DNA of 64,000 bases from an uncultured Thermodesulfobacteriota bacterium (GCA_964510775.1 CAZEBZ010000002.1:8447-72446), one strand, 5' to 3'. Counted from the first letter of the stretch, positions 1 through 58,449 are shown. A program made the numbers and translations. The notes: generated by a model not told the origin, from the letters alone.

Positions 1-328
1 AGACCTTATCAAAACTATTATCGGCAAAACCAACGCTCATGGCGTCCATGCTAAGCACATTTATATAATCAAGACGATTCTCATCTATCTTTTTCTTGGC
101 TTTCTTAAGCATCTCCCTTGAGAGATCTATGCCTACGACCTTGCAGTGCTTTGGGTATACAGAGAAGGAGAGTCCCGTACCTACGCCTACATCGAGGACG
201 CGCTCGCCCGGTTTTATATCCATAGTAGTAATAGCGTTACTGATTCTGGGATAAAAAAACCTCTTAAAGAGCATATCGTATACACTGGAATAGGCCGCGT
301 ATACCTTCTTAATGCTCTCTATTTCCAT
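1..328 (-). CDS. Class I SAM-dependent methyltransferase, partial (runs off the window start; N-terminus at 328)
   Basis: Reverse translation from ATG at 328 gives MEIESIKKVYAAYSSVYDML...VLDVGVGTGLSF, the glycine-rich motif I of Rossmann-fold methyltransferases. This ORF is missing from the supplied ORF track because it is truncated by the window edge. Confidence 0.6.
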   Translation of the reverse strand, partial: MEIESIKKVYAAYSSVYDMLFKRFFYPRISNAITTMDIKPGERVLDVGVGTGLSFSVYPKHCKVVGIDLSREMLKKAKKKIDENRLDYINVLSMDAMSVGFADNSFDKV

Positions 329-41413: not shown

Positions 41414-42304
41414 TTAGCGCCCTTTAATCTTTTTCACGGCAGGCGTCTTCTTTACGTCCTGAGTATCTTTAATCTTTTTCACCTTCTTCTCAATGGCCTC
41501 GGCGCGCTTCTTATAATCAGCGGCCTCGGTATTGGCGGGGTCAACGGCAAGCACCTTCTTCCACTCTCTTATGGCAAGGGCAAGCTCCTCTTTCTGAAAA
41601 AGAGTTACGCCCTCTTTGATATGACGGTCTATAAAATTCTTGCGCTCAAGACGGGCGAGATTTAAAAAAAGCTCGGCGTCTTTATAATCAGGCACAATCT
41701 TAAGCGCCTCTGTAAAGTGCTTTATGGCTTTATTATATTTACCTGAGATAAAATAAAGCTTACCCTTTACGTAGTGATGTCCCGCTTTTTTCTCAGGGCC
41801 AACATCTCTCTTTTTGGCCTTACGTATCTTCTTTCTTATCTCTTCAAGCCCGGGCAATGGCTGGCCGGGATTCTCACTGCTTAAAATTTTGTTAAGAAGG
41901 GTATGCTTTTTTCTCGCCCACTTATTTGATGGATTAATACGAAGGGCAGTATCATACTCTTTAAGGGCTTTGTGCAGTATACCCGCCTTCTCATAGGCCT
42001 CGGCAAGCTCCACATGCTCTGTTGAGAGTTTAAGGGCAAGTCTGTTAATATCCTTCAGGAGTTTTTGAGCTCGGCTGTACGCAGGGTCTGTCTCTACTAT
42101 GTCACCGGCCTTGTCCCTTGCCTGAGATATAGCACCGCGCTCATAGAGTATCTCTGCCTGCCTGTAATCAGTACCAAGGACATAATCAGTCCCTGTCCCC
42201 GCGCAGCCGGAGAAGAGGACAGAGGCCAAGACCACGAGGCTAAGGTAAAAACCCCTCCTCGCCCATGGTTCTGATAGTCCTCTCAACAACTTGCTCAATC
42301 TCAA
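41414..42304 (-). CDS. TPR-repeat lipoprotein
   Basis: 296 aa. A lipobox-like signal (VLFSGC) is followed by multiple 34-residue TPR repeats (AEAYEKAGILHKALKEYDTALRINP and others). The annotated start overlaps the upstream cyclase gene by 65 nt, so the true start may be an internal non-ATG codon. Confidence 0.7.
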   Translation of the reverse strand: MRLSKLLRGLSEPWARRGFYLSLVVLASVLFSGCAGTGTDYVLGTDYRQAEILYERGAISQARDKAGDIVETDPAYSRAQKLLKDINRLALKLSTEHVELAEAYEKAGILHKALKEYDTALRINPSNKWARKKHTLLNKILSSENPGQPLPGLEEIRKKIRKAKKRDVGPEKKAGHHYVKGKLYFISGKYNKAIKHFTEALKIVPDYKDAELFLNLARLERKNFIDRHIKEGVTLFQKEELALAIREWKKVLAVDPANTEAADYKKRAEAIEKKVKKIKDTQDVKKTPAVKKIKGR

Positions 42305-43664
42305 CCCTCCTATTATCCTTCAACTCAACTATACTATAAAGCCCGATTGGCTTGTCAACACCTTTTATTGCCGCAGGCGCTACCTTCTGACAATGGGCGT
42401 ATTTCTTCACCCGCGCATAAAGCCCCTCGTTTATAAGTATCTCACCTCCGCCTGCTATATCAGATAACCGCGAGGCCATGTTCACTGCCTCGCCGACTGC
42501 CGTATACTCCATCCTCTGTCTCGAACCCATGTTGCCTACAATCACAGGGCCGGAATCAAGGCCAAGGCCCATACGCACAGCGGGCTCACCGCGCTCCTGC
42601 CTCAGGGCATTTACGCGCCTTAGGACATCCCTTATGGCAACAGTCGTCTTGACCGCCTCCTCCAGATGAGAAGGATTGGCAATAGGAGCGCCAAATACGC
42701 ACATTACGGCATCGCCGATAAACTTATCCACCGTGCCGCCGCAGGTAAAGACTACCTCCGTAATAAGGCTGAAGTATTTATTCAATATCTCAACTGTCTG
42801 CTCCGGACTCATGCTCCGGGCATGACGGGTAAAGCCGCGTATATCAGCGAAAAAAACAGTAAGATCGCGTCGTTCGCCGCCAAGATCAAGGCTCTCGGGC
42901 TCTCTTAATATCTCATCGGCCACATCAGGGCTGACATAGAGATTAAAGACCCCTCTCATAACCTCCTTTTTCTTCAGCTCCGCGGCCATATGGTTAAATG
43001 AGCGCACAAGCTCGCCCACCTCGTCTCTTCTCCCTTCAGGTATCTTATAATCAAAATTTCCCATAACTATCTCCTTCGTACCTTTGAGGAGCATGAATAT
43101 GGGCCTTAAAAATCCTGAGGCAAGGGGTATAGAGATAAAAGAGACGAAGATTATAGCCAGCATGGTGATAATAACGAGGCTCATTACCGCGGCCCTTACC
43201 CTCTCGACGATAAAGGCCTTTGAGAAAGAGAGTACCGTGTAGCCAACCTTGGTATCCTTAAAAAAAACAGGCATGGCGTAGGTAATGGAGCCCTCTCCCT
43301 CAGATATCACCCATGGATAGGCGCCGCGCGCCGCATTGATACGGTTTGCGAGAAAAAATCTCTCGCCCACGCTCCGCATATCCCTAACGGCCTTGACCAT
43401 GAGGCTCTCGTTCAGTATGTATGCCTTTGAGATTGATGGATTTTTAAGAATATTCTCAATGAGCTGGCTCATTGCGAGGCTGTCGTTCTCAAGGAGGGGG
43501 AACTTACTGTTACGGGAAAAACTGCCTGTAATAGTTCCGGCCATGGACTTTATCTGCGATTCCATGGAGTGTTTCTGATTCAGCACCATGAAGACGCCCA
43601 TGACAGTGGTAATGGCGCAAAACAGGATGGAGAGGATTATGGCGTACTTTAACTTTATGCCCAT
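42240..43664 (-). CDS. Membrane-bound class III adenylate/guanylate cyclase with periplasmic sensor and HAMP domain
   Basis: 474 aa with two TM segments flanking a roughly 140-aa periplasmic domain, a HAMP domain (VGELVRSFNHMAAEL), and a CHD cyclase domain (FADIRGFTRHA...GDAVMCVFG). Confidence 0.8.
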   Translation of the reverse strand: MGIKLKYAIILSILFCAITTVMGVFMVLNQKHSMESQIKSMAGTITGSFSRNSKFPLLENDSLAMSQLIENILKNPSISKAYILNESLMVKAVRDMRSVGERFFLANRINAARGAYPWVISEGEGSITYAMPVFFKDTKVGYTVLSFSKAFIVERVRAAVMSLVIITMLAIIFVSFISIPLASGFLRPIFMLLKGTKEIVMGNFDYKIPEGRRDEVGELVRSFNHMAAELKKKEVMRGVFNLYVSPDVADEILREPESLDLGGERRDLTVFFADIRGFTRHARSMSPEQTVEILNKYFSLITEVVFTCGGTVDKFIGDAVMCVFGAPIANPSHLEEAVKTTVAIRDVLRRVNALRQERGEPAVRMGLGLDSGPVIVGNMGSRQRMEYTAVGEAVNMASRLSDIAGGGEILINEGLYARVKKYAHCQKVAPAAIKGVDKPIGLYSIVELKDNRRVEIEQVVERTIRTMGEEGFLP

Positions 43665-48709: not shown

Positions 48710-49654
48710 CTAAAAGAGTGTCTTTCTCTTTTTCTTTTTCTTTTTCTGCTTTTTCTTCTTCTCTTCCTCTTCTTTAGCTTTTTTATCGGCCTCGGCCTTG
48801 GCCGCGGCCTTCTCTTTCACAACATCAGCGCCTGTAATCCAGTCCGGTATGGCACGCTCTACGGAGTGACAGCGAAAACAATTTTCAAGAGGAAAGGCCA
48901 CCTTGCCGTGACAAGCGCCGCAGTACTCTCCGTCTATAATCTTCATCATATCCATAGCAGCATTACCGCCCTCTTTCGCCTTAAAGCGCCCCGGGTGACA
49001 GGCCGCGCAGTCAAGTACCTCGGTATGAGACTTATGTGGGAAGAGGACATCAGGCGGGACTGCGGAGAATTTACTGCGGGCATAGGCAGGAAGCACTACG
49101 TCCTTTTTAAGCGCCTTCAGCTGTCCCTTACCGTCAAGAGAGGATTTTGGAGTAATCTTATTCTCATGGAGGGCCTTGACCCAGTCAACCTTGTTGCCAA
49201 AATCACTAGCGGGAAAGCCCCTAAGGGCCTCCTTAATACCGCTATTCTCCACGACCTTCTTACCATAGGAATGGCAGCGATTGCATGTCTTCGTACTAAA
49301 AGCCTCTCTTCCGTTATGACAGGCGCCGCATTTTCCCCCGCTCTCAATATCGCTATGCCTTATATCCGTAAAGCCTGCCTTCCAGGCAAATCCAAGATCC
49401 TTGTGACAGACATTACATGTATAAAACCTCCTGTGCGCCCAGTGTTTAAAGACAACAGGGGCCACACCATCGGCGGCCTTAATATTCTTCTTCATCACAA
49501 CAGAGCCGTACCAGGAAGGCGGTAATACTTTATTGTAACCATCCCCTGTTACGGTGCGGGGCCCTGCCGCTGAGGAAGAGATAAATTGCGGCGCCGCTAT
49601 GACAAATAGAGCAAGAAGAACTATCTCTATGATATGCGTACAAAAACGTTTCAA
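48710..49654 (-). CDS. Hexaheme c-type cytochrome built from c7/c3-like modules, with a poly-lysine C-terminal tail
   Basis: 314 aa with a signal peptide and six CxxCH motifs (CNVCH, CGACH, CNRCH, CAACH, CGACH, CFRCH). The distal His contexts are c3/c7-like (VVFKHWAHRRF, VLFPHKSHTEVL). The C-terminus is KAKEEEEKKKKQKKKKKKRK. Confidence 0.8.
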   Translation of the reverse strand: MKRFCTHIIEIVLLALFVIAAPQFISSSAAGPRTVTGDGYNKVLPPSWYGSVVMKKNIKAADGVAPVVFKHWAHRRFYTCNVCHKDLGFAWKAGFTDIRHSDIESGGKCGACHNGREAFSTKTCNRCHSYGKKVVENSGIKEALRGFPASDFGNKVDWVKALHENKITPKSSLDGKGQLKALKKDVVLPAYARSKFSAVPPDVLFPHKSHTEVLDCAACHPGRFKAKEGGNAAMDMMKIIDGEYCGACHGKVAFPLENCFRCHSVERAIPDWITGADVVKEKAAAKAEADKKAKEEEEKKKKQKKKKKKRKTLF

Positions 49655-50214: not shown

Positions 50215-52401
50215 CTAATTAGTACAATCAGCAACAGTATTACAGCTGTAGATAGCCGTAACTCCCGTAAGTATATCCGTAAAATTATGCTTACAGACCT
50301 TGTCCGTCAGAGTATTCACTGTTCTAAAGTATAGCTGCGCTCCGGCAGTCGTAGTCGCCGGCACATAGGACTCTATACAGGCCCCGTTCATCATCCTGTA
50401 CCCAAGGGGGCTTGAGCCAACAACAGTGCCCGCCGCCGCGTTGCTGCCATGTATACCCTTCATTACATTATTAACACTGTCATAACCGCCGCCGTGACAG
50501 GACAGGCAGAGATTGCCAAAGTAATTGCTGTCATTACCCGTACCAACGCCTGAGGTATAAAAAGGTGAGGCCGTACCGAGACCATCCACGGGGTGAGGTA
50601 CTCTGGAATAGTTGGCATTAGGCCCGACAAAACCCTCATCGCCATAGACATCGCGGCGGTGGCAGTTATAGCAGAAGTTCTTCAGAGAACCCGCTCCGCT
50701 CTCATTGCTTCTAAGGACCCACTTATTATTTGAGGCATGAGGCCCCTGTGGGTCTGCTGCCGAGTCCGGGCCATGACAATCCGTACACGTCATAGTCGAT
50801 TCATGAGTAACATTGGCAAAACCAGTCCTCGTGCCTGTACCGGGAAAATCAAGATAAGTAAATGTATTAGTAAGACCGAGGCCGTTAATTGGCCAATTGG
50901 GGTTAGCCAAGACAGGCGGACGGTTCTTGCCCTGAATAAATACAGGGTGAAAGCCCTTGTTGTTTACATTAAAGTCATCTGAAATATCCGATTCTTTCAC
51001 AATACTGCCGTTCGCGTTGCCAGAGGGAACAAAAGGCGGCATACTGGAGTAGGCGTAATAGGAATGACACTTCATACACAGGTAGCCCTCAAGGTTATTT
51101 CCGCCGGGCAGAGTTGATGTGAAGTCAACAACCTGATAGGTAAGGGCCGCTCCGGAGAGAGGCCAGACAGAGGGCATTACCCCCCATGAGCCTAACAAAT
51201 TAGGGCCTATGACATCTCCGTCAATACCGCCTATAGTGTGATTACCGGCCTTTGCACCGTGAGGATTATGACAATCGGCGCACTCGGCGTGTCTGTTCAG
51301 ACCAAGGTTAACGGCCGTCTCACGAGCTGGATCGCTTGAGACGGATCTTGAAGGTATATGGGCGCCGCTAACTCCCTTCACATCATGCATTGAGGTCTTA
51401 GTAAAAAGGGCATCTATGTTTTTTGCGGCCACGTTGCCATTATGGCAGTTAAGGCATGTCCACTCCTCATCTACTATTGTATGAGTCACAGGATCCGTAC
51501 CCTTCAAGAGGCTCTTTCCCGCCATGCCTCCATGAGAGCGGTGGCAGGCAAGACAGCTATGCTGCTGCGGTGTATCGTCGGCAAAACCCGCCGCGCCCAT
51601 ATCAAGGTGATAGGGATTCTCACCTGTCTGGTTCCAGAGAGCGATTGAGTCCCTGTGAACTGAGGGATTGGTATCCCAGTATTTTTTAGTATGACAGGCA
51701 GCACAGAGCACGCCGTTCTCAGGGCTCGTTACCATTAAGGCAGGGTATATGGTGCCGTGAGGGTCGTGACAGCTTGTGCATTGCAGCATGTTATTCTTAT
51801 CCAGTTTCACCGCAGCCGGCAGAGCCGATGCGGCCTTAATTTCCACATTGGCAGGTGAAGAGAGTGCGTAATCAAATGAAATGGGATGGTCGTCTCTTAG
51901 ATCCGTCCCTATATAAGCCGTAGAAACGGCAGTAAGTTTACCAGCCGTCACCCCCGGGCCTGTAACAGGCAGGGTAAATGGGCCCGTTACTGATGTGAAG
52001 TTCTTAAGAGAACCAATGGCAATAGTTCCGTCGTGACAGGAGAGGCATAGTTTTGACGAACCCGTGGGCTGGCCCATAGTGGCAACAACAGTATCGCTCT
52101 GATATATATTATAAGTAGCTCCCGAGTCAGCCCTGTTCCAGAGGGGCCCCGATGGGCTGGTATTATGAGGGGCATGACAAAATACACATATCCTTGTAGT
52201 ATTTGCCGTCTTTATCGCAGAGGAAGAGAAAGTGCTGAAGTTGTGTTTTGTCGCGGCAACTGTGGCAAAAACCGGTGTCGCGGCAAAAAACATAACGCCG
52301 GACATCAATAAGCCCAGACAAAAAACCACTGCGTGCGCTGTGCCAGTCCCTCGCAGAAAATTAACAAAAAAACTTCTTTTAATAAACTCGGCGTATCTCA
52401 A
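50215..52401 (-). CDS. Large multiheme c-type cytochrome, 11 CxxCH motifs
   Basis: 728 aa with a signal peptide and 11 CxxCH motifs (CVFCH, CLSCH, CTSCH, CAACH, CLACH, CLNCH, CADCH, CMKCH, CTDCH, CYNCH, CLSCH). Composition is rich in Thr/Ser/Gly/Asn, which suggests surface exposure. Confidence 0.8.
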   Translation of the reverse strand: MRYAEFIKRSFFVNFLRGTGTAHAVVFCLGLLMSGVMFFAATPVFATVAATKHNFSTFSSSAIKTANTTRICVFCHAPHNTSPSGPLWNRADSGATYNIYQSDTVVATMGQPTGSSKLCLSCHDGTIAIGSLKNFTSVTGPFTLPVTGPGVTAGKLTAVSTAYIGTDLRDDHPISFDYALSSPANVEIKAASALPAAVKLDKNNMLQCTSCHDPHGTIYPALMVTSPENGVLCAACHTKKYWDTNPSVHRDSIALWNQTGENPYHLDMGAAGFADDTPQQHSCLACHRSHGGMAGKSLLKGTDPVTHTIVDEEWTCLNCHNGNVAAKNIDALFTKTSMHDVKGVSGAHIPSRSVSSDPARETAVNLGLNRHAECADCHNPHGAKAGNHTIGGIDGDVIGPNLLGSWGVMPSVWPLSGAALTYQVVDFTSTLPGGNNLEGYLCMKCHSYYAYSSMPPFVPSGNANGSIVKESDISDDFNVNNKGFHPVFIQGKNRPPVLANPNWPINGLGLTNTFTYLDFPGTGTRTGFANVTHESTMTCTDCHGPDSAADPQGPHASNNKWVLRSNESGAGSLKNFCYNCHRRDVYGDEGFVGPNANYSRVPHPVDGLGTASPFYTSGVGTGNDSNYFGNLCLSCHGGGYDSVNNVMKGIHGSNAAAGTVVGSSPLGYRMMNGACIESYVPATTTAGAQLYFRTVNTLTDKVCKHNFTDILTGVTAIYSCNTVADCTN

Positions 52402-52559: not shown

Positions 52560-53696
52560 TCATCCGCCGCGCGTATGAATGGGTTCGCTGCCACCGCCTC
52601 CAAGATACTCAAAGACCTCTATCCTTCTATTGTAAGGATCTGCCACAAAAATATTATCAGAGGCGTCTATAAAGACCCCTCCGGGCATCCAGAACATACC
52701 GGGGCCTGCGCCGAGCTTTCCGAAGCTAAGGAGAAAGGCACCCTTGCGGGAAAATATCTGCACAGTATCAAAGATGGCATCGGCCACATATATGTTGCCC
52801 TCGGAATCTACGGCAATACCCTTTGGCCTGCCAAAATCGCCAGTGCCGTCGCCATGCTGACCAAAGCTGCTTAAATATCGGCCATTCATGTCGAATATCT
52901 GAACCCTGTAGTTCATAGAGTCCGTTACATAGAGGTCTCCTCTGGCATCAACAAAGACATCAGTAGGGTAATTAAACTGACCATCTTTGTCTCCACGACC
53001 GCCAAACGTCTTAATAAGCCTACCCTGAAGGTCGTAGGCTATTAGTTCATGCTCGCCAGTATCCACGACATAGAGGCGTTTTCTCGCGGCGTCTACGGCT
53101 AAACCCGTAGGGCGCGTCCCGCCATCAATGGAACGAATGAGCTTGCCTCGCTGATTAAAGACATAGACCTTGCGTGCGCTGGAATCACTGACATATATAT
53201 TATCGGCGTTGTCTGTGGCCACGCCCATAGGAGATATAAGAGGGTCTTTGCCTGCCCTATCGATAAATTCATACTTTTTTTTCTTCTTATCGTATATATG
53301 AACCCTCTTCAGGACAGTATCGGCAACGATAATCCTGCCGGAGACGTCTACGGCGATACCATAGGGCTTCACCATATCTCTCTTGGCGGCGCCAACAAGG
53401 ACATCGACGATTTTTTTGAAAAGACCTCTCTTGATTCCAAGATCCTCGGGCCTTGCAAGGGATATATCAAAGGCAATACGCGCAGGCGCCGGAGGTGAGG
53501 GCCATATAAGGGGCTTATGCTTAAAGTCTTTTGATTGCTGAGCTGATATGTCCGGAGTACCGCATCCAACTGAGGTAAGGAGCAGGGTAAGCACAAGGAG
53601 ACACAGACATGACAAAGAGGCCGCTTCGCGTACAGAACGCACCGAAGCATCACGCCGTTGCATGAAAAAATCATAAAAAGCAGAATATATTCTCAT
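52560..53696 (-). CDS. NHL-repeat six-bladed beta-propeller protein, probable lipoprotein
   Basis: 378 aa with six NHL repeats (IYVSDSSARKVYVFNQRG, LYVVDTGEHELIAYDLQG, LYVTDSMNYRVQIFDMNG, IYVADAIFDTVQIFSRKG, IFVADPYNRRIEVFEY and others) and an N-terminal signal with Cys (LTSVGC). Confidence 0.8.
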   Translation of the reverse strand: MRIYSAFYDFFMQRRDASVRSVREAASLSCLCLLVLTLLLTSVGCGTPDISAQQSKDFKHKPLIWPSPPAPARIAFDISLARPEDLGIKRGLFKKIVDVLVGAAKRDMVKPYGIAVDVSGRIIVADTVLKRVHIYDKKKKKYEFIDRAGKDPLISPMGVATDNADNIYVSDSSARKVYVFNQRGKLIRSIDGGTRPTGLAVDAARKRLYVVDTGEHELIAYDLQGRLIKTFGGRGDKDGQFNYPTDVFVDARGDLYVTDSMNYRVQIFDMNGRYLSSFGQHGDGTGDFGRPKGIAVDSEGNIYVADAIFDTVQIFSRKGAFLLSFGKLGAGPGMFWMPGGVFIDASDNIFVADPYNRRIEVFEYLGGGGSEPIHTRGG

Positions 53697-54437: not shown

Positions 54438-55589
54438 CTAGCGCCCAAAGGCATAGACATATCCATCCTTGGAGGCGGCAAAGAGCCTCTCACCGGAGAT
54501 GGCCGGAGAGCTGTGGACACCTCCGCCCGTAGCATAACTCCAGCTTATCTCGCCAAGAATAATGTCAATAGCATAGATACGACCGTCCTCGGCGCCAACA
54601 TATATAAAACCATTGGAGGTAACAACAGGCGTGGAGTTAACAGGGGCCGGAAGCTTGTAATCTGCGAGCCGTCTGCCGCGCCTCATACCATAGGCCCTTA
54701 TATGACCATCCTTAAAGGCAAGGTAAATCTTGCCTCCAGCCACAACAGGAGAAGCATATACCATGGAGCTGGCGATGTTTTTTCTAAAAACAATCTTACC
54801 CGTCTCAGCATCAACACCAAAGAGCTTACGCTCTCCAGAGACAAAATAAACCTTGCCGTTCTTTAAGACAGGACTCGTGTATATAGACGAGTGGTTAATC
54901 ACCGCCCAGTTTCTGCCGCCGCTCTTGCCGTCCTGCGAATAAAGAACACCGTTCTTGCCGGCGAAGAGAACAGCGTCTTTATAGTACAGCGGTGATGCGT
55001 ATATATCGCTGTACTTCTCGTAATCAAGCGTCCTCATACGCCAGATCCGCTTTCCCGTCTTGGCGTTAAGGGCATAAAAACGCAGGTCTGATGCTCCAAA
55101 AAAGACCATGCCGCCGCCTACTACCGGTGAGGTAAGGATACTACCGTCTGCGGTGAAGCTCCACATAAGCCTGCCGTCCGAGGCATCAAGACAATAGAAC
55201 TTACCGTCCTTTGAACCAAAGAACACATGACCGTCTTTAACGGCGGGCGTAGAGAGTATCTCGCCGCCAGTGGAAAAGCTCCAGAGCTTTGCGCCCGTAG
55301 TCTCATCAAGGGCATATAGTTTTTTGTCGTATGAACCGATAAATACCTTGCCGCCCCATACAACGGGAGATGAATAAACAGGCCCATCAGTAGCGAACTT
55401 CCATAAAACCTTCAGAGGGGGCCGAGGAGCCATAGGGGCAAAAGAGGAATGATTCCTGTCCTTCATGAACATGGGCCAATCTGCGTGGCCGCTGCCCGGA
55501 AGAAAAAGTGCGGAGAGTGAACAAATAATTACAGCGGTAAGTATTTTAATAAATTCAGAGCCGTATTTTCTTCCGTAGACTTGTCTCAT
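54438..55589 (-). CDS. PQQ-repeat (BamB-like) beta-propeller protein
   Basis: 383 aa with a signal peptide and about eight repeats of the PQQ-propeller pattern (SSPVVxxGxVFxGSxDGxLYALDAxTGKxxW). Confidence 0.8.
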   Translation of the reverse strand: MRQVYGRKYGSEFIKILTAVIICSLSALFLPGSGHADWPMFMKDRNHSSFAPMAPRPPLKVLWKFATDGPVYSSPVVWGGKVFIGSYDKKLYALDETTGAKLWSFSTGGEILSTPAVKDGHVFFGSKDGKFYCLDASDGRLMWSFTADGSILTSPVVGGGMVFFGASDLRFYALNAKTGKRIWRMRTLDYEKYSDIYASPLYYKDAVLFAGKNGVLYSQDGKSGGRNWAVINHSSIYTSPVLKNGKVYFVSGERKLFGVDAETGKIVFRKNIASSMVYASPVVAGGKIYLAFKDGHIRAYGMRRGRRLADYKLPAPVNSTPVVTSNGFIYVGAEDGRIYAIDIILGEISWSYATGGGVHSSPAISGERLFAASKDGYVYAFGR

Positions 55590-55598
55590 ATACTATAA

Positions 55599-56207
55599 TC
55601 AAACCTTGAATGTTAAGAGCTTTTTCAGCGCAGAATCTGTTTTTGAACTCATACTCTCAAGTCTTTCAATAACCTCGGTCTTTACTGACATTCTTCCCGA
55701 AGCGCTCCTGTAGCACACAAGCCCCCTCGCAAGACCATTTATCTCCGCAACCTCTGCCTGAACCGCGGTAAAGCGCTCGTCAAATAGCTCCATAGAATCA
55801 TTAAAGGCGCCACGAGGCGACTCAAGGTGATGAGGCAGCCCTGCAATCCTAACAGTTAAGTCACCACCCTGTCCGGCATTCTTCATGGCCTCTATATAAA
55901 AAGCGAGCCCTCTCTCAAGACTCCTCGTCAGCACATATCCGAAGACAAGACCAGCGATAATTATAAAGGGCACACTAAAGGCCGAGAGTTTCCATATAAC
56001 AGGCCAGATTATATCCGAGGTAGAACTTGCCTGCAAGTGAATTTTATAGAGCCTCTCATCAAGCCTGCCCTCAATAAGAATATAGGCGGCTAAGAGGTCT
56101 AAAAAAAGCCCGCAGCTTACGAGTACGGCGAGACCAATTACAAAACGGCCCTGAAGGGATCTGTTTATAAAAAACCGCCTTCTCCTCAACCACGGATACT
56201 TACCCAT
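55599..56207 (-). CDS. Small membrane protein: 2 TM helices + HAMP-like linker + C-terminal coiled coil, no output domain
   Basis: About 202 aa. The first TM is FVIGLAVLVSCGLFLDLLAAYILI and the second is FSVPFIIIAGLVFGYVL, followed by a HAMP-like segment ending AFNDSMELFDERF. It is a paralog in architecture of the protein at 57131-57745. Confidence 0.5.
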   Translation of the reverse strand: MGKYPWLRRRRFFINRSLQGRFVIGLAVLVSCGLFLDLLAAYILIEGRLDERLYKIHLQASSTSDIIWPVIWKLSAFSVPFIIIAGLVFGYVLTRSLERGLAFYIEAMKNAGQGGDLTVRIAGLPHHLESPRGAFNDSMELFDERFTAVQAEVAEINGLARGLVCYRSASGRMSVKTEVIERLESMSSKTDSALKKLLTFKV

Positions 56208-56261
56208 CTTACACCTCATAAAGTTAACATAAAATCAATTAAAATTCAACTACGTGCCCGC

Positions 56262-57077
56262 TTACTTTACATGGCAGGCAAGACAGAGATTACTCCCGTA
56301 ATTATCCATAACGAGCTGCGCGTGCGTACCTGAGTAGGGGCTGTGACAGGTGCCGCAGCCCACCATGCCGCCAAAAAACTTTATCTGCGGCGGTAGCGAC
56401 GCCATGTCCCTGTAGGCGCCCCTGTATTTTCTCTTTGCCTCGGCGTAGGATACACCTACGGGGTGCGTCAGACCTGTAATATTACTGTGGCGACTCCTGA
56501 AAATATCCTGATTTTCCACCATCGCGGAGCTGCCTACTATGGCATCATGACAGCTCAGACACTTTATGCTCATCTCGTCCAGACGGGCGCCGCCCTGAGC
56601 CTGAGGGGAATAAGATGCCTTAAGAGGCCTTGGAGCGCCGCCTATATGGGCATTTACACCGGAGAGAGTGTGTATCATATTATCATCAAGGCCGCTGTGG
56701 CATAATACGCAAAACCCCTGACCTCCGGCGCTTGTCCTCAGGTGACTGGGGCCAAACCCCTGATGATGTATCTCGTGACAGGTGAGGCATGTAACCATAC
56801 CTCTCCAATCCAAGGGAAAATAAGAAGGCACCTTCATCGCGGGCGTAATGTCAACGGGATGAGTAAGCCCCTCCTCCTGGCGGTGACACTCCATACATAA
56901 CCCTGTTATATCCTTTCTTAATGTAGGTTTTTTATCTCCTGCGCCGGGAATTTTAATATGACAATCCAGACATCTCCCTGTAAAATCATGATAAGCGCCT
57001 GCCGTCCTACCGGGAACTTTAGCCGAGAATACCAGCGCACCAGCGATTAAAACAAGCAATAAGAGTACCTTCTTCAC
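56262..57077 (-). CDS. Heptaheme c-type cytochrome
   Basis: 271 aa. The GTG start is preceded by an AGAGG Shine-Dalgarno sequence. It has a signal peptide and seven CxxCH motifs (CLDCH, CMECH, CLTCH, CVLCH, CLSCH, CGTCH, CLACH), with a GLTHPV distal-ligand motif repeated twice. Confidence 0.8.
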   Translation of the reverse strand: MKKVLLLLVLIAGALVFSAKVPGRTAGAYHDFTGRCLDCHIKIPGAGDKKPTLRKDITGLCMECHRQEEGLTHPVDITPAMKVPSYFPLDWRGMVTCLTCHEIHHQGFGPSHLRTSAGGQGFCVLCHSGLDDNMIHTLSGVNAHIGGAPRPLKASYSPQAQGGARLDEMSIKCLSCHDAIVGSSAMVENQDIFRSRHSNITGLTHPVGVSYAEAKRKYRGAYRDMASLPPQIKFFGGMVGCGTCHSPYSGTHAQLVMDNYGSNLCLACHVK

Positions 57078-57114
57078 CTCGACAAAACCTCTGAATTGTA
57101 TTAGCCCCGCACAT

Positions 57115-57123
57115 GGGGGGGGG
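57115..57123. repeat. Homopolymeric G tract (G9; C9 on the coding strand) 38 nt upstream of the heptaheme cytochrome start
   Basis: acatGGGGGGGGGcactcg, inside the 53-nt gap between the HAMP-protein gene and the heptaheme cytochrome gene. Confidence 0.7.
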
Positions 57124-57130
57124 CACTCGT

Positions 57131-57745
57131 TTATTGGGCGGTCTTTATTGCTGAGATTCTTGAACTCAGCTCTTTTACGAGCCCCTCAAGCTCCCTTATA
57201 CCCTCGGCAGCTTCCCCCTCAAGACACTCACCGCTCCCCTCAAGCTCCTCAGCCTCTCGCAGAAGGGCACAGAGACTGCCGCTCTGTTTTTTTACGGCCA
57301 TTAAAGACTCCCTGGACTCTACGACAAGCCCTGTGAGTCTCTCTGTCATTTTATTCTTTTCTCTTGCCAGAAGAGCCAGTTGGTCACTCTCACGAAAAGA
57401 CGTCTCTACCGTAAGGTCTCCTGAGGCAAGAAGCTCAAGGTCGCGTGTAAGCCTGAAGATCGGGCCAGCCATCTTATGAGAGAAAAATATCGAGGTCAGG
57501 GCGATAAAGACTACGGTAACAACCATAGTGGCTATGGAATAGACTGAGGCCAATACGAGAGAGAAGATATTTATCCTCAGTGAGTATATGGCATACATGG
57601 CCTCGCCATAGGAATGGCCAAGGTCACGGCCCGTAACAAGATAAAGACCGATAGTGAGGGCCGAGAAACCGGCCGCCGTAAGGAGACAGAACTTTATCAG
57701 GAATTTAAGCTGAAAACTGCCCTCAAGCAGTCTAACACTCCTCAT
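57131..57745 (-). CDS. Small membrane protein: 2 TM helices + HAMP-like linker + C-terminal coiled coil, no output domain
   Basis: 204 aa. The TMs are at about residues 15-37 and 60-88, followed by HKMAGPIFRLTRDLELLASGDLTVETSFRESDQLALLAREKNKMTERL (HAMP pattern) and a coiled coil. A GGAGG Shine-Dalgarno lies 8 nt upstream of the ATG. Confidence 0.5.
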   Translation of the reverse strand: MRSVRLLEGSFQLKFLIKFCLLTAAGFSALTIGLYLVTGRDLGHSYGEAMYAIYSLRINIFSLVLASVYSIATMVVTVVFIALTSIFFSHKMAGPIFRLTRDLELLASGDLTVETSFRESDQLALLAREKNKMTERLTGLVVESRESLMAVKKQSGSLCALLREAEELEGSGECLEGEAAEGIRELEGLVKELSSRISAIKTAQ

Positions 57746-57869: not shown

Positions 57870-57985
57870 GTCTATGTCTTTACTATCGGCGTCTCAGGCG
57901 AAAAGTTTAAGAAAAAGGGCGCTGCAAGAGGTATAATAAGGACGCGACACTTAAGAGACGCACTAAGGGCCTCATCTTGCTAACA

Positions 57986-58142
57986 GGGTAGAGGGCATAA
58001 GGGGTAGAGAGCAGAAGGGGCAGAGGGCATAAGGGGTAGAGGGCATAAGGGGTAAGAGGCAGGAGAGGGGCAGAGGGCAGGAGAGGGGCAAGGGGCAGGA
58101 GAGGGGCAGAGGGCAGCAGGGGTACAGGGGACAGGAGGGGTA
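57986..58142 (+). repeat. G-rich tandem repeat of 18-nt units (AGGGCATAAGGGGTAGAG x3, then GGGCAGGAGAGGGGCAGA x3-4)
   Basis: The plus strand carries GGG/GGGG runs every 6-9 nt over about 160 nt. The spurious minus-strand ORF across it translates as repeated PLPLSCPLPLSC, which reflects the periodicity. Confidence 0.8.
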
Positions 58143-58213
58143 AAGAAAGGGCGGGGTCATAAAACCCGCCGTCTCATTGAACCTTTTTAAGATTACACAT
58201 ACATTTACACTCT

Positions 58214-58289
58214 GGCGGCGTACCCAAGTGGCTAAGGGAGCAGTCTGCAACACTGCCATCCAGCGGTTCGAATCCGCTCGCCGCCTCCA
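58214..58289 (+). tRNA. tRNA-Cys (GCA), CCA encoded
   Basis: GGCGGCGTACCCAAGTGGCTAAGGGAGCAGTCTGCAACACTGCCATCCAGCGGTTCGAATCCGCTCGCCGCCTCCA. It has a 7-bp acceptor stem, the anticodon loop CTGCAAC with anticodon GCA, and a GGTTCGAAT T-loop. Confidence 0.9.
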
Positions 58290-58312
58290 TTTTTTCTTAT
58301 ACTCTCATAAAT

Positions 58313-58340
58313 AAAAAAGGGCCCTTAAGGGCCCTTTTTT
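58313..58340. terminator. Bidirectional intrinsic terminator (A6-GGGCCC-TTAA-GGGCCC-T6)
   Basis: A perfect 6-bp GC stem with a 4-nt loop is flanked by an A-tract and a T-tract. It lies 23 nt downstream of tRNA-Cys (plus strand) and about 110 nt downstream of the minus-strand M20 peptidase gene. Confidence 0.6.
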
Positions 58341-58449
58341 ATTATTCTTTATTCTTAATAATTAATTTAACATCCCTTCCGGAGCCCACACCTCTCACTC
58401 TCTCATCTGCCGCAGCGGCGTGGTAACAGCATAGGCTCCTGCAAAAAAA

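Follow-up and report, generated by a model that had tools for sequence, protein, structure and literature searches.

HAMP-only membrane proteins encoded beside exported multiheme cytochromes: a family lacking output domains and its possible role as a partner-dependent transmembrane coupler

Introduction

The HAMP domain is among the most thoroughly studied of signalling modules and is usually understood as a relay that passes a signal from an input to an enzymatic output within one protein. In HtrII, the partner of sensory rhodopsin II, and in intramembrane-sensing histidine kinases such as BceS, the partner of BceAB, two transmembrane (TM) helices joined by a very short outer loop lead into a HAMP placed directly after TM2, and the stimulus is expected from the co-encoded membrane photoreceptor or transporter. 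Here we describe two proteins of the same layout, encoded by genes A and B in a 64,000-nucleotide stretch of DNA from an uncultured Thermodesulfobacteriota bacterium (GCA_964510775.1, CAZEBZ010000002.1:8447-72446; this whole stretch is called the window, and all positions are counted in it). For these proteins too the stimulus would be expected from a co-encoded partner, but in the A/B family that partner is a periplasmic multiheme cytochrome or an HExxH protein. Unlike HtrII and BceS, A and B have neither the kinase-control hairpin of a methyl-accepting chemotaxis protein (MCP) nor HisKA and HATPase domains, they end about 60 residues past the HAMP, and they are encoded together as two diverged paralogs.

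Two further HAMP proteins bear comparison. LapD is a HAMP inner-membrane protein that is directed not at a kinase but at a periplasmic partner, LapG (inside-out control); besides a large domain in the periplasm it has GGDEF-EAL modules on the cytoplasmic side, to which c-di-GMP binds. By description, the HExxH branch of the A/B family resembles a pair of receptor and periplasmic hydrolase such as LapD-LapG, whereas A and B bear just a ~25-residue loop and a short hairpin. Af1503 of Archaeoglobus fulgidus, a structural model for HAMP, is a receptor with a sizeable extracytoplasmic domain that ends right after its HAMP, with no hairpin behind it. Like A and B it carries a HAMP without a recognisable output domain, and chimeras containing its HAMP match profiles of the family, but there is no full-length homology and we know of no cytochrome linkage for Af1503.

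A preprint on OmcE-type nanowires states that, in its minimal form, an omcE cluster comprises genes for OmcE, for a large beta-barrel, for two beta-propeller lipoproteins and for two multiheme cytochromes (bioRxiv 10.1101/2025.10.22.684050). In composition the genes that follow B match the description of these clusters and of the Uet undecaheme cluster (bioRxiv 10.1101/2022.05.06.490989): they include an OmcE-like domain and c7-type triheme domains, two beta-propellers, and several multiheme cytochromes, one of them with 11 hemes. The window differs from the OmcE clusters in that it holds all components of the described set except the beta-barrel, no gene for which lies between 48.7 and 57.7 kb, and in that the OmcE-like domain is part of a fusion protein of 728 residues. 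HAMP-only membrane proteins are not mentioned in the available passages of either preprint, and the literature that we searched gave no account of HAMP-only proteins linked to cytochromes.

Results

An earlier, sequence-only reading of the window had described A and B as paralogous membrane proteins of about 200 residues, each made of two TM helices, a HAMP-like linker and a C-terminal coiled coil, with no output domain. Both open reading frames (ORFs) lie on the minus strand where that reading had placed them and their translations contain the peptides it quoted, with one correction at the start of B. The ORF as listed (56219..55599, 206 residues) is four codons too long; the homologues of B all begin MGKYPW, GAGGTG precedes the second ATG and the JGI gene call has 202 residues, which together place the true start at 56207. 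Gene A has a GGAGG ribosome-binding site (RBS) 7 nucleotides upstream of its start.

Hydropathy shows two hydrophobic segments in each protein. The N-termini are basic, with 4 (A) and 7 (B) lysines or arginines among the first 25 residues, and by the positive-inside rule the N-terminus, the HAMP-like region and the C-terminal helices are predicted to be cytoplasmic, so that no more than a 20-27-residue loop would be exposed to the periplasm. AlphaFold2 monomer models (pLDDT, the predicted local distance difference test score, 70 for A and 62 for B, i.e. low to moderate confidence) give both proteins the same course. TM1 and a loop lead to TM2, which runs on into the first amphipathic HAMP helix (AS1); behind a connector of some 15 residues comes a helix of about 43 residues that is linked by a turn to a last one of about 28. 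The helix-gap-helix that directly follows TM2 corresponds to the AS1/AS2 layout of HAMP domains. Designed antiparallel helical hairpins can be fitted to model A over its last 64-75 residues with deviations of 1-2 Å. Hydropathy, models and the profiles described below bear out the earlier description of the architecture.

Searches of Pfam and NCBIfam with A and B detected no kinase, MCP-signal, GGDEF or other domain and assigned neither protein to a known family. HisKA and HATPase_c were not detected with either collection, and the NCBIfam kinase matches span TM2 and HAMP only, at scores far under their cut-offs. PF00015 (MCPsignal) did not match A or B, where only about 60 residues follow the HAMP, and it is also absent from the 25 Pfam families most frequently matched across 113 family members. 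We considered the hairpin as a stub of the membrane-proximal part of an MCP bundle (a ‘mini-MCP’) and keep this as an analogy only; it draws on non-significant C-terminal alignments and coiled-coil similarity, with no PF00015 signal. One such alignment sets the C-terminal FKV of B against the ...RFKV end of PcaY and is likewise not significant.

At the profile level A carries a HAMP. A profile of the A family, built from 13 homologues of 196-221 residues, matches TM2 and HAMP of Tsr (E 1.3e-6) and Af1503-HAMP chimeras (E 8e-4), and A itself gives partial NCBIfam matches (MtrB, WalK, MCP) within residues ~36-163, mostly 65-160, i.e. TM2 and HAMP, with E values down to 9e-9. The Pfam HAMP model PF00672 matched neither A nor B at E<=1. 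It matches 3 of the 13 A-family members (best E 0.0017, under the gathering cut-off), none of ten B-family members, and 51 of 113 members of the broad family described below (best E 4.6e-11). A profile of this broad family (A3) matches TM2 and HAMP of PcaY (E 1.2e-11), Tsr (3e-10) and HtrII (7.4e-9); one built from B and its nearest wider relatives (A4) matches TM2 and HAMP of PcaY (3.7e-5), a poly-HAMP kinase (5.2e-5), Tsr (6e-4) and Aer2 (0.006). Furthermore, the HAMP hallmark residues (P in AS1, G-D-L, and D/E-x-x-x-x-FN-x-M) are kept in most of this very diverse family. The profiles bear out the HAMP of A through its own family, and that of B through the broader family only and not for B itself, so that B is best described as carrying a degenerate HAMP.

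Compared directly, A and B show no significant likeness: BLASTP gives E 0.03, hhalign gives a probability of 19.5% confined to the N-terminus, and in a partial comparison the C-terminal halves share nothing but GDLTV. An exhaustive profile search seeded with the B family (E<=1e-3, clustering at 50% identity) returned at least 721 clusters of proteins of about 195 residues, nearly all 180-215 residues long and matching end to end, several of which bear the A-like AS1 sequence SH(K/R)IAGPLYRL. The A-family profile aligns with this broad family over 193 columns (hhalign 99.8%, E 2.4e-29), and the broad-family hidden Markov model (HMM) matches both B (E 5.8e-52, HMM positions 2-195) and A (E 3.5e-28, HMM positions 14-194) over their full length. 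Because both match the common profile in this way, A and B are distant members of one superfamily, and because the split into A-type and B-type recurs in other phyla the duplication is old. The paralogy claimed earlier therefore fails in the direct comparison and stands by the common profile, and A and B are ancient paralogs. The premise that a standalone HAMP protein is an oddity finds no support, given the size of this family of such proteins.

The family is marked at its ends by RRxYFIxKxFQxRF at the N-terminus and FK[VIL] at the C-terminus (consensus R-R-x-Y/F-F-I-x-K-x-F/L-Q-x-R-F ... F-K/R-V/I/L). B has both, as RRRRFFINRSLQGRF and ...TFKV, whereas A keeps only ...SFQLKF and ends in IKTAQ, the A-type proteins generally lacking the RR motif. 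A reading of RRxYFIKK as a twin-arginine translocation (Tat) signal is unlikely, with about 8-10 partly charged residues between the motif and TM1 and no such motif in the A-type. No Pfam or NCBIfam model covers the family. Its members are named ‘hypothetical’ in the databases or, for some in JGI, ‘methyl-accepting chemotaxis protein’, a label that is wrong; look-ups of the family clusters returned no names and no members from cultured organisms.

In order to see the neighbourhoods of the family we compared loci in other genomes. Relatives at 45-65% identity, all in one lineage of Thermodesulfobacteriota metagenome-assembled genomes (MAGs), keep the whole nine-gene cluster headed by gene A together with its flanks; among these are a DHH-CBS-polyA polymerase on the downstream side and, on the upstream side, tRNA-Cys, an M20 peptidase and GGT. 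A wider scan, with one genome per species and a degenerate DNA pattern for the N-terminal motif of the family, gave at least 120 loci (numbered with the prefix L), in which ORFs were called mechanically and cytochromes were recognised by their CXXCH counts. Among the matches listed, 111 of 120 loci contain a family ORF of ~190-200 residues.

At least 32 of these 111 loci are linked to cytochromes, and in 4 more the cytochrome genes are divergently oriented. The recurrent arrangement is a cassette of an A-type gene, a heptaheme cytochrome of 266-298 residues and a B-type gene, followed by one of two tails. One tail is a tetraheme cytochrome of about 140 residues; the other, which the window has, begins with a PQQ-like propeller and continues with a tetraheme cytochrome, an NHL propeller and a large cytochrome that is OmcE-like. 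Cassettes occur in Nitrospirota, Thermodesulfobacteriota/Desulfobulbia, Nitrospinae and under a few other MAG labels; the modular placement noted earlier is thus real, and much more general than one locus could show. Among the matches listed, 49 of 146 family genes adjoin a co-oriented ORF with at least three heme motifs, whereas the figure for the remaining ORFs of these loci is 17 of 535 (odds ratio 15, Fisher p 1.6e-22), which supports co-occurrence with multiheme cytochromes. Gaps to the partner genes are short, or the genes overlap. The order within the cassette is also constant: the A-type gene is first and the B-type second in 25 pair loci, the window included, among the matches listed. 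In every pair the A-family HMM gives the first gene the higher score and the second resembles the general family, and the 25 complete pairs give separate A-type and B-type consensus motifs. The statement that each gene precedes a cytochrome holds for A but not for B, which in the window is followed 9 nucleotides downstream by the PQQ/BamB-like propeller gene, as the text of the sequence-only reading itself had it.

Behind the small tetraheme cytochrome of the minimal cassettes comes a large protein that bears no heme. Two of these proteins (L012:370-2562 and L046:1614-3869) contain three Lcl_C domains (Pfam E 8e-69 and 9e-56), and similar ORFs of 620-800 residues are found in L072, L074, L095 and L124.

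A second and larger branch of the family occupies a different neighbourhood. In at least 66 of the 111 loci (L010, L011, L022, L023, L028 and about 60 others, from Omnitrophota, Planctomycetia and Desulfobacterota) a single HAMP-only gene stands between the gene of a SurA_N-like lipoprotein, which comes first, and that of an exported protein of about 195 residues. The latter has no Pfam family and bears an HExxH motif in 42 of the 43 cases checked. In at least five natural fusions (L017:1427-2593, L026, L047, L057 and L066) the HAMP-only protein continues, directly after its terminal FK[VI], into a third hydrophobic segment and the HExxH domain. By the Rosetta-stone argument these five fusions suggest that the HAMP-only module works with a periplasmic partner.

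Other arrangements again involve redox proteins. Distant single members (L005:7255-12447, L130:8001-13208 and L006) lie 7 nucleotides upstream of a multiheme cytochrome of 540-590 residues, which is followed by a Redoxin/AhpC-TSA-family protein; L006 ends soon after, and L005 and L130 go on with a GAF-GGDEF protein and a further two proteins of the Redoxin family. At another locus a cytochrome stands between two family members beside hybrid-cluster-protein genes. In Geobacteraceae, Geobacterales and several Nitrospirota MAGs (L122:73-7999, L016, L081 and L059) the A-type and B-type genes are directly adjacent and lie beside cytochromes of 6-7 hemes with the N-terminal sequence AFHSGG..EC..CH, which are putatively OmcS-like. 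In the Geobacteraceae locus (L122) an OmpR-type response regulator and two histidine kinases directly follow the pair.

Conservation, scored per region as 1 minus normalised entropy, is highest at the periplasmic loops in both families (Table 1). The loop of the A family has five invariant residues (L42, Y46, A49, I53 and L56) and that of the B family an invariant run, RLYKIHLQ..ST.DII.P. The N-terminal motif and TM helices score ~0.7-0.85, the HAMP ~0.7-0.8 and the hairpin behind it 0.5-0.68. In the broad family the order is similar, from the N-terminal motif at the top to the hairpin at the bottom. This gradient suggests that the functionally specific surface is the membrane and periplasmic face rather than the cytoplasmic tip.

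The cytochrome between A and B is itself unusual in its composition. Its N-terminal half is similar to small tetraheme cytochromes (that of 150 residues in the window and those of ~140 residues in other cassettes) and its C-terminal half is OmcE-like (C-terminus against OmcE, 7tfs, E 1.5e-4), so that a small tetraheme-type module seems to have been joined to an OmcE-like one at the C-terminal end. Orthologues lie between two HAMP genes in 18 further loci of several phyla at 32-50% identity. Among the 19 sequences, that of the window included, 14 cysteines and 13 histidines are invariant and one methionine is 89% conserved. The first heme motif and an invariant histidine come within ~10-15 residues after the N-terminal hydrophobic segment; many orthologues lack a clear AxA cleavage site, and many have plausible signal-peptidase sites. 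We considered the loop histidine of B, which is 50-80% conserved across B-type proteins, as a heme ligand in trans and rejected it; six invariant histidines outside the motifs and the methionine are available for seven hemes, which makes it unneeded, and nothing supports it.

Further down the row, the N-terminal domain of the undecaheme cytochrome matches OmcE (7tfs, E 1.6e-20) and 9yuq_N (E 1.9e-22) and is fused to ~490 further residues with seven more hemes. Orthologues are present in L027, L056 and L111, and the PQQ/BamB-like propeller has orthologues at the same position in these loci and in L039. The cassette in the window heads what is, by composition, an OmcE-type cytochrome cluster, in which filament formation is putative. 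No recognisable quinol dehydrogenase was found in the cluster with Pfam and NCBIfam.

Table 1. Genes of the co-oriented row and regions of the A and B proteins (nucleotide positions in the window, or residues where marked aa)
Feature	Position	Strand	Basis or remark
Gene A, A-type HAMP-only membrane protein, 204 aa	57131..57745	-	ORF, RBS, hydropathy, homologues, family HMM
Regions of A: TM1; periplasmic loop; TM2; HAMP; helical hairpin	aa 15-38; 39-58; 59-88; 89-140; 141-204		
Periplasmic loop of A, top-conserved A-family segment	57572..57631	-	conservation 0.85, against 0.54 for the hairpin
HAMP-like region of A (SHKMAGPIFRL...SGDLTVETSFRESDQLALLAREKNKMTERL)	57326..57481	-	profile matches; helix-gap-helix in model
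Heptaheme c-type cytochrome, 271 aa, 7 CXXCH	56262..57077	-	heme motif count; Pfam Paired_CXXCH_1 and related families
Gene B, B-type HAMP-only membrane protein, 202 aa	55599..56207	-	family HMM, JGI gene call
Regions of B: TM1; periplasmic loop; TM2; degenerate HAMP; hairpin	aa 23-43; 44-70; 71-93; 94-146; 147-202		
Periplasmic loop of B (EGRLDERLYKIHLQASSTSDIIWPV), nearly invariant in B family	55998..56078	-	conservation 0.90, highest of all regions
Degenerate HAMP-like region of B (TRSLERGLAFYIEAMKNAGQGGDLTVRI...HHLESPRGAFNDSMELFDERF)	55770..55928	-	broader family profiles
PQQ/BamB-like beta-propeller with signal peptide	54438..55589	-	Pfam PQQ_2 1.7e-60
Tetraheme cytochrome, 212 aa	53718..54356	-	Pfam, heme motif count, BLAST
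NHL-repeat beta-propeller	52560..53696	-	Pfam NHL 2.2e-29
Undecaheme cytochrome, 728 aa, 11 CXXCH, N-terminal OmcE-like tetraheme domain aa 29-239	50215..52401	-	PDB matches
Tetraheme cytochrome, 150 aa	49683..50135	-	heme motif count, BLAST
Hexaheme cytochrome, two c7-type triheme domains	48710..49654	-	NCBIfam nanowire_3heme 7.2e-35

The nine genes of the row run on the minus strand from 57745 down to 48710 with gaps of 9-158 nucleotides between them. The NHL-repeat propeller is read as a probable lipoprotein from the ...SVGC motif in its N-terminal sequence. The tetraheme cytochrome of 150 residues has a homologue in minimal cassettes, namely the small tetraheme cytochrome encoded after the B-type gene. 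The final gene of the cluster, that of the hexaheme cytochrome, encodes an extremely lysine-rich C-terminal tail (...EEEEKKKKQKKKKKKRKTLF).

Upstream of the cluster lies a tRNA-Cys(GCA) gene (58214-58289, plus strand), whose position is kept in the related loci L001 and L003, and beyond it a bidirectional terminator-like hairpin with a perfect 15-bp stem (58310-58343). Between gene A and the tRNA gene, 240-400 nucleotides upstream of gene A, there is a tandem repeat (57986-58142; period 16-18, about 9 copies) that is purine-rich, or C/T-rich on the gene strand, and gives rise to a spurious ORF of 95 residues (57972..58259). The repeat is not kept in related loci, L001 having a different 42-nucleotide repeat and L003 none. 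About 5 kb past the cluster, the sole other HAMP protein in the window is a membrane protein of 474 residues (42240-43664, minus strand). Its residues 161-233 match the HAMP part of the family HMM and its C-terminal part is read as a putative class III nucleotidyl cyclase domain.

Discussion

We put at roughly 40% the probability that A and B act together as a transmembrane HAMP coupler, heteromeric and dependent on a partner, on which the periplasmic heptaheme cytochrome docks. In its favour we count the HAMP homology of the family, the constant pairing of A-type and B-type genes, the linkage to the heptaheme and other multiheme cytochromes with short gaps or overlaps, the HExxH fusions, the high conservation of the periplasmic loops, and the signalling genes present in some operons (L122, L005 and L130). 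HAMP domains function as dimeric four-helix bundles, and we infer that an A-type and a B-type protein would assemble as a heteromer. Their loops and outer TM ends would dock the heptaheme cytochrome and, via this cytochrome, the downstream apparatus of OmcE-type cytochrome and propellers. Through the HAMP, the state of the periplasmic partner (redox or occupancy) would govern the conformation of the cytoplasmic bundle or be governed by it, and the short antiparallel hairpin would cap the bundle. The logic would be that of HtrII and sensory rhodopsin, or of intramembrane-sensing kinases and their partners, with no built-in enzymatic output. Any output would have to be handed on through contact with another protein, either unlinked or specific to a lineage, and signalling to a kinase in trans may occur. 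The sequence-only reading had suggested that the C-terminal coiled coils touch the downstream cytochromes. This is topologically implausible, the hairpin being cytoplasmic and the cytochromes exported, as judged by their signal peptides and CXXCH motifs. Because the two lie on opposite sides of the membrane, any contact of A or B with a cytochrome would have to be made by the loops or TM helices.

A number of observations weigh against such a coupler. The HAMP is least secure in B, where neither the sequence nor the close B family gave a HAMP match in any profile comparison and where the AS1 proline and the acidic start of AS2 are lost. There is no output domain, and the cassette encodes no conserved cytoplasmic partner. 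Signalling genes near the pairs are not clearly commoner than expected for such genomes, and they are too sporadic for a conserved output. The poorly conserved cytoplasmic hairpin fits a structural cap better than a specific docking surface. The models of A and B are monomers of low to moderate confidence, and a Foldseek search of the PDB with model A gave no match at E<=0.001, only generic helical hairpins. Furthermore, the sample of loci was selected by a motif and consists almost entirely of MAGs, and is hence biased.

The absence of an output domain, and a conservation gradient that favours the loops and TM helices over the hairpin, are also what would be seen if A and B were passive membrane anchors or scaffolds that tether the heptaheme cytochrome and the OmcE-type apparatus, the HAMP and hairpin serving as a dimerisation stalk with no signal passed. 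The operons encode exported proteins only, and in the HExxH fusions the module is the membrane anchor of the periplasmic domain, both of which agree with this explanation. Nevertheless we think it somewhat unlikely, since the HAMP hallmark residues are kept across most of a diverse family, which is hard to explain for a mere stalk, and cytochromes that have their own signal peptides could be tethered more cheaply.

A role in biogenesis seems a good deal less probable. A and B would here be an inner-membrane platform for the maturation, folding or hand-over of an exported partner, together with periplasmic chaperones and propellers. The SurA_N-like lipoprotein that adjoins the second branch of the family speaks for this, as do the OmcE nanowire type of the window cluster with its two propellers and the adjacent A/B pairs beside cytochromes that are presumably OmcS-like; dedicated assembly genes around omcS and omcE are also described in the literature. 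Yet A and B have no ATPase, translocon or heme-handling motif, the minimal cassettes contain no chaperone gene, and we know of no chaperone role for HAMP.

That the cluster lacks a recognisable quinol dehydrogenase raises a further possibility, namely that the heptaheme cytochrome and the four TM helices of A and B make up a new quinol:cytochrome c oxidoreductase or a gated entry point for electrons. The cytochrome might be held by a signal anchor, given the closeness of its first heme to the N-terminal segment and the many orthologues without a clear AxA site. We hold this to be very improbable: the TM helices have no conserved cofactor-binding or quinone-site motif, the loop histidine of B is only 50-80% conserved among B-type proteins, plausible signal-peptidase sites are present in many of the heptaheme orthologues, and the family also serves a non-redox HExxH partner. 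Finally, that A and B are chance ORFs or what is left of longer sensors (pseudogenes of a truncated MCP or kinase), as the JGI names and the partial kinase and MCP matches over TM2 and HAMP might suggest, is excluded for practical purposes by hundreds of clusters of uniform length (~195 residues) with conserved N- and C-terminal motifs, by downstream ORFs that are complete, unrelated exported proteins with their own starts and into which no homology runs, and by synteny kept at 45-65% protein identity.

Among these explanations the partner-dependent coupler is the one that we prefer. A more far-reaching version, which we consider distinctly doubtful, would make the A/B pair and the heptaheme cytochrome the missing inner-membrane base of OmcE-type, and possibly OmcS-type, filament systems. 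It would act as a conformationally gated electron entry, or as an initiation and anchoring site for the filament or a periplasmic heme chain, with the HAMP as a switch by which the connection would be opened or closed as the energetic state of the cell demands.

The association of the family with exported metalloproteins, in particular the cassette of A-type gene, heptaheme cytochrome and B-type gene on OmcE-type and possibly OmcS-type clusters, is undescribed in the literature searched. For annotation, it defines a family that has no Pfam or NCBIfam model. For HAMP biology, it presents a large and phylogenetically broad HAMP family without output, encoded beside exported metalloproteins and often as two diverged paralogs around a heptaheme cytochrome. 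The family points to an undescribed membrane component of extracellular electron-transfer systems, and it is a candidate for how OmcE-type, and possibly OmcS-type, cytochrome systems are connected, regulated or assembled at the inner membrane.

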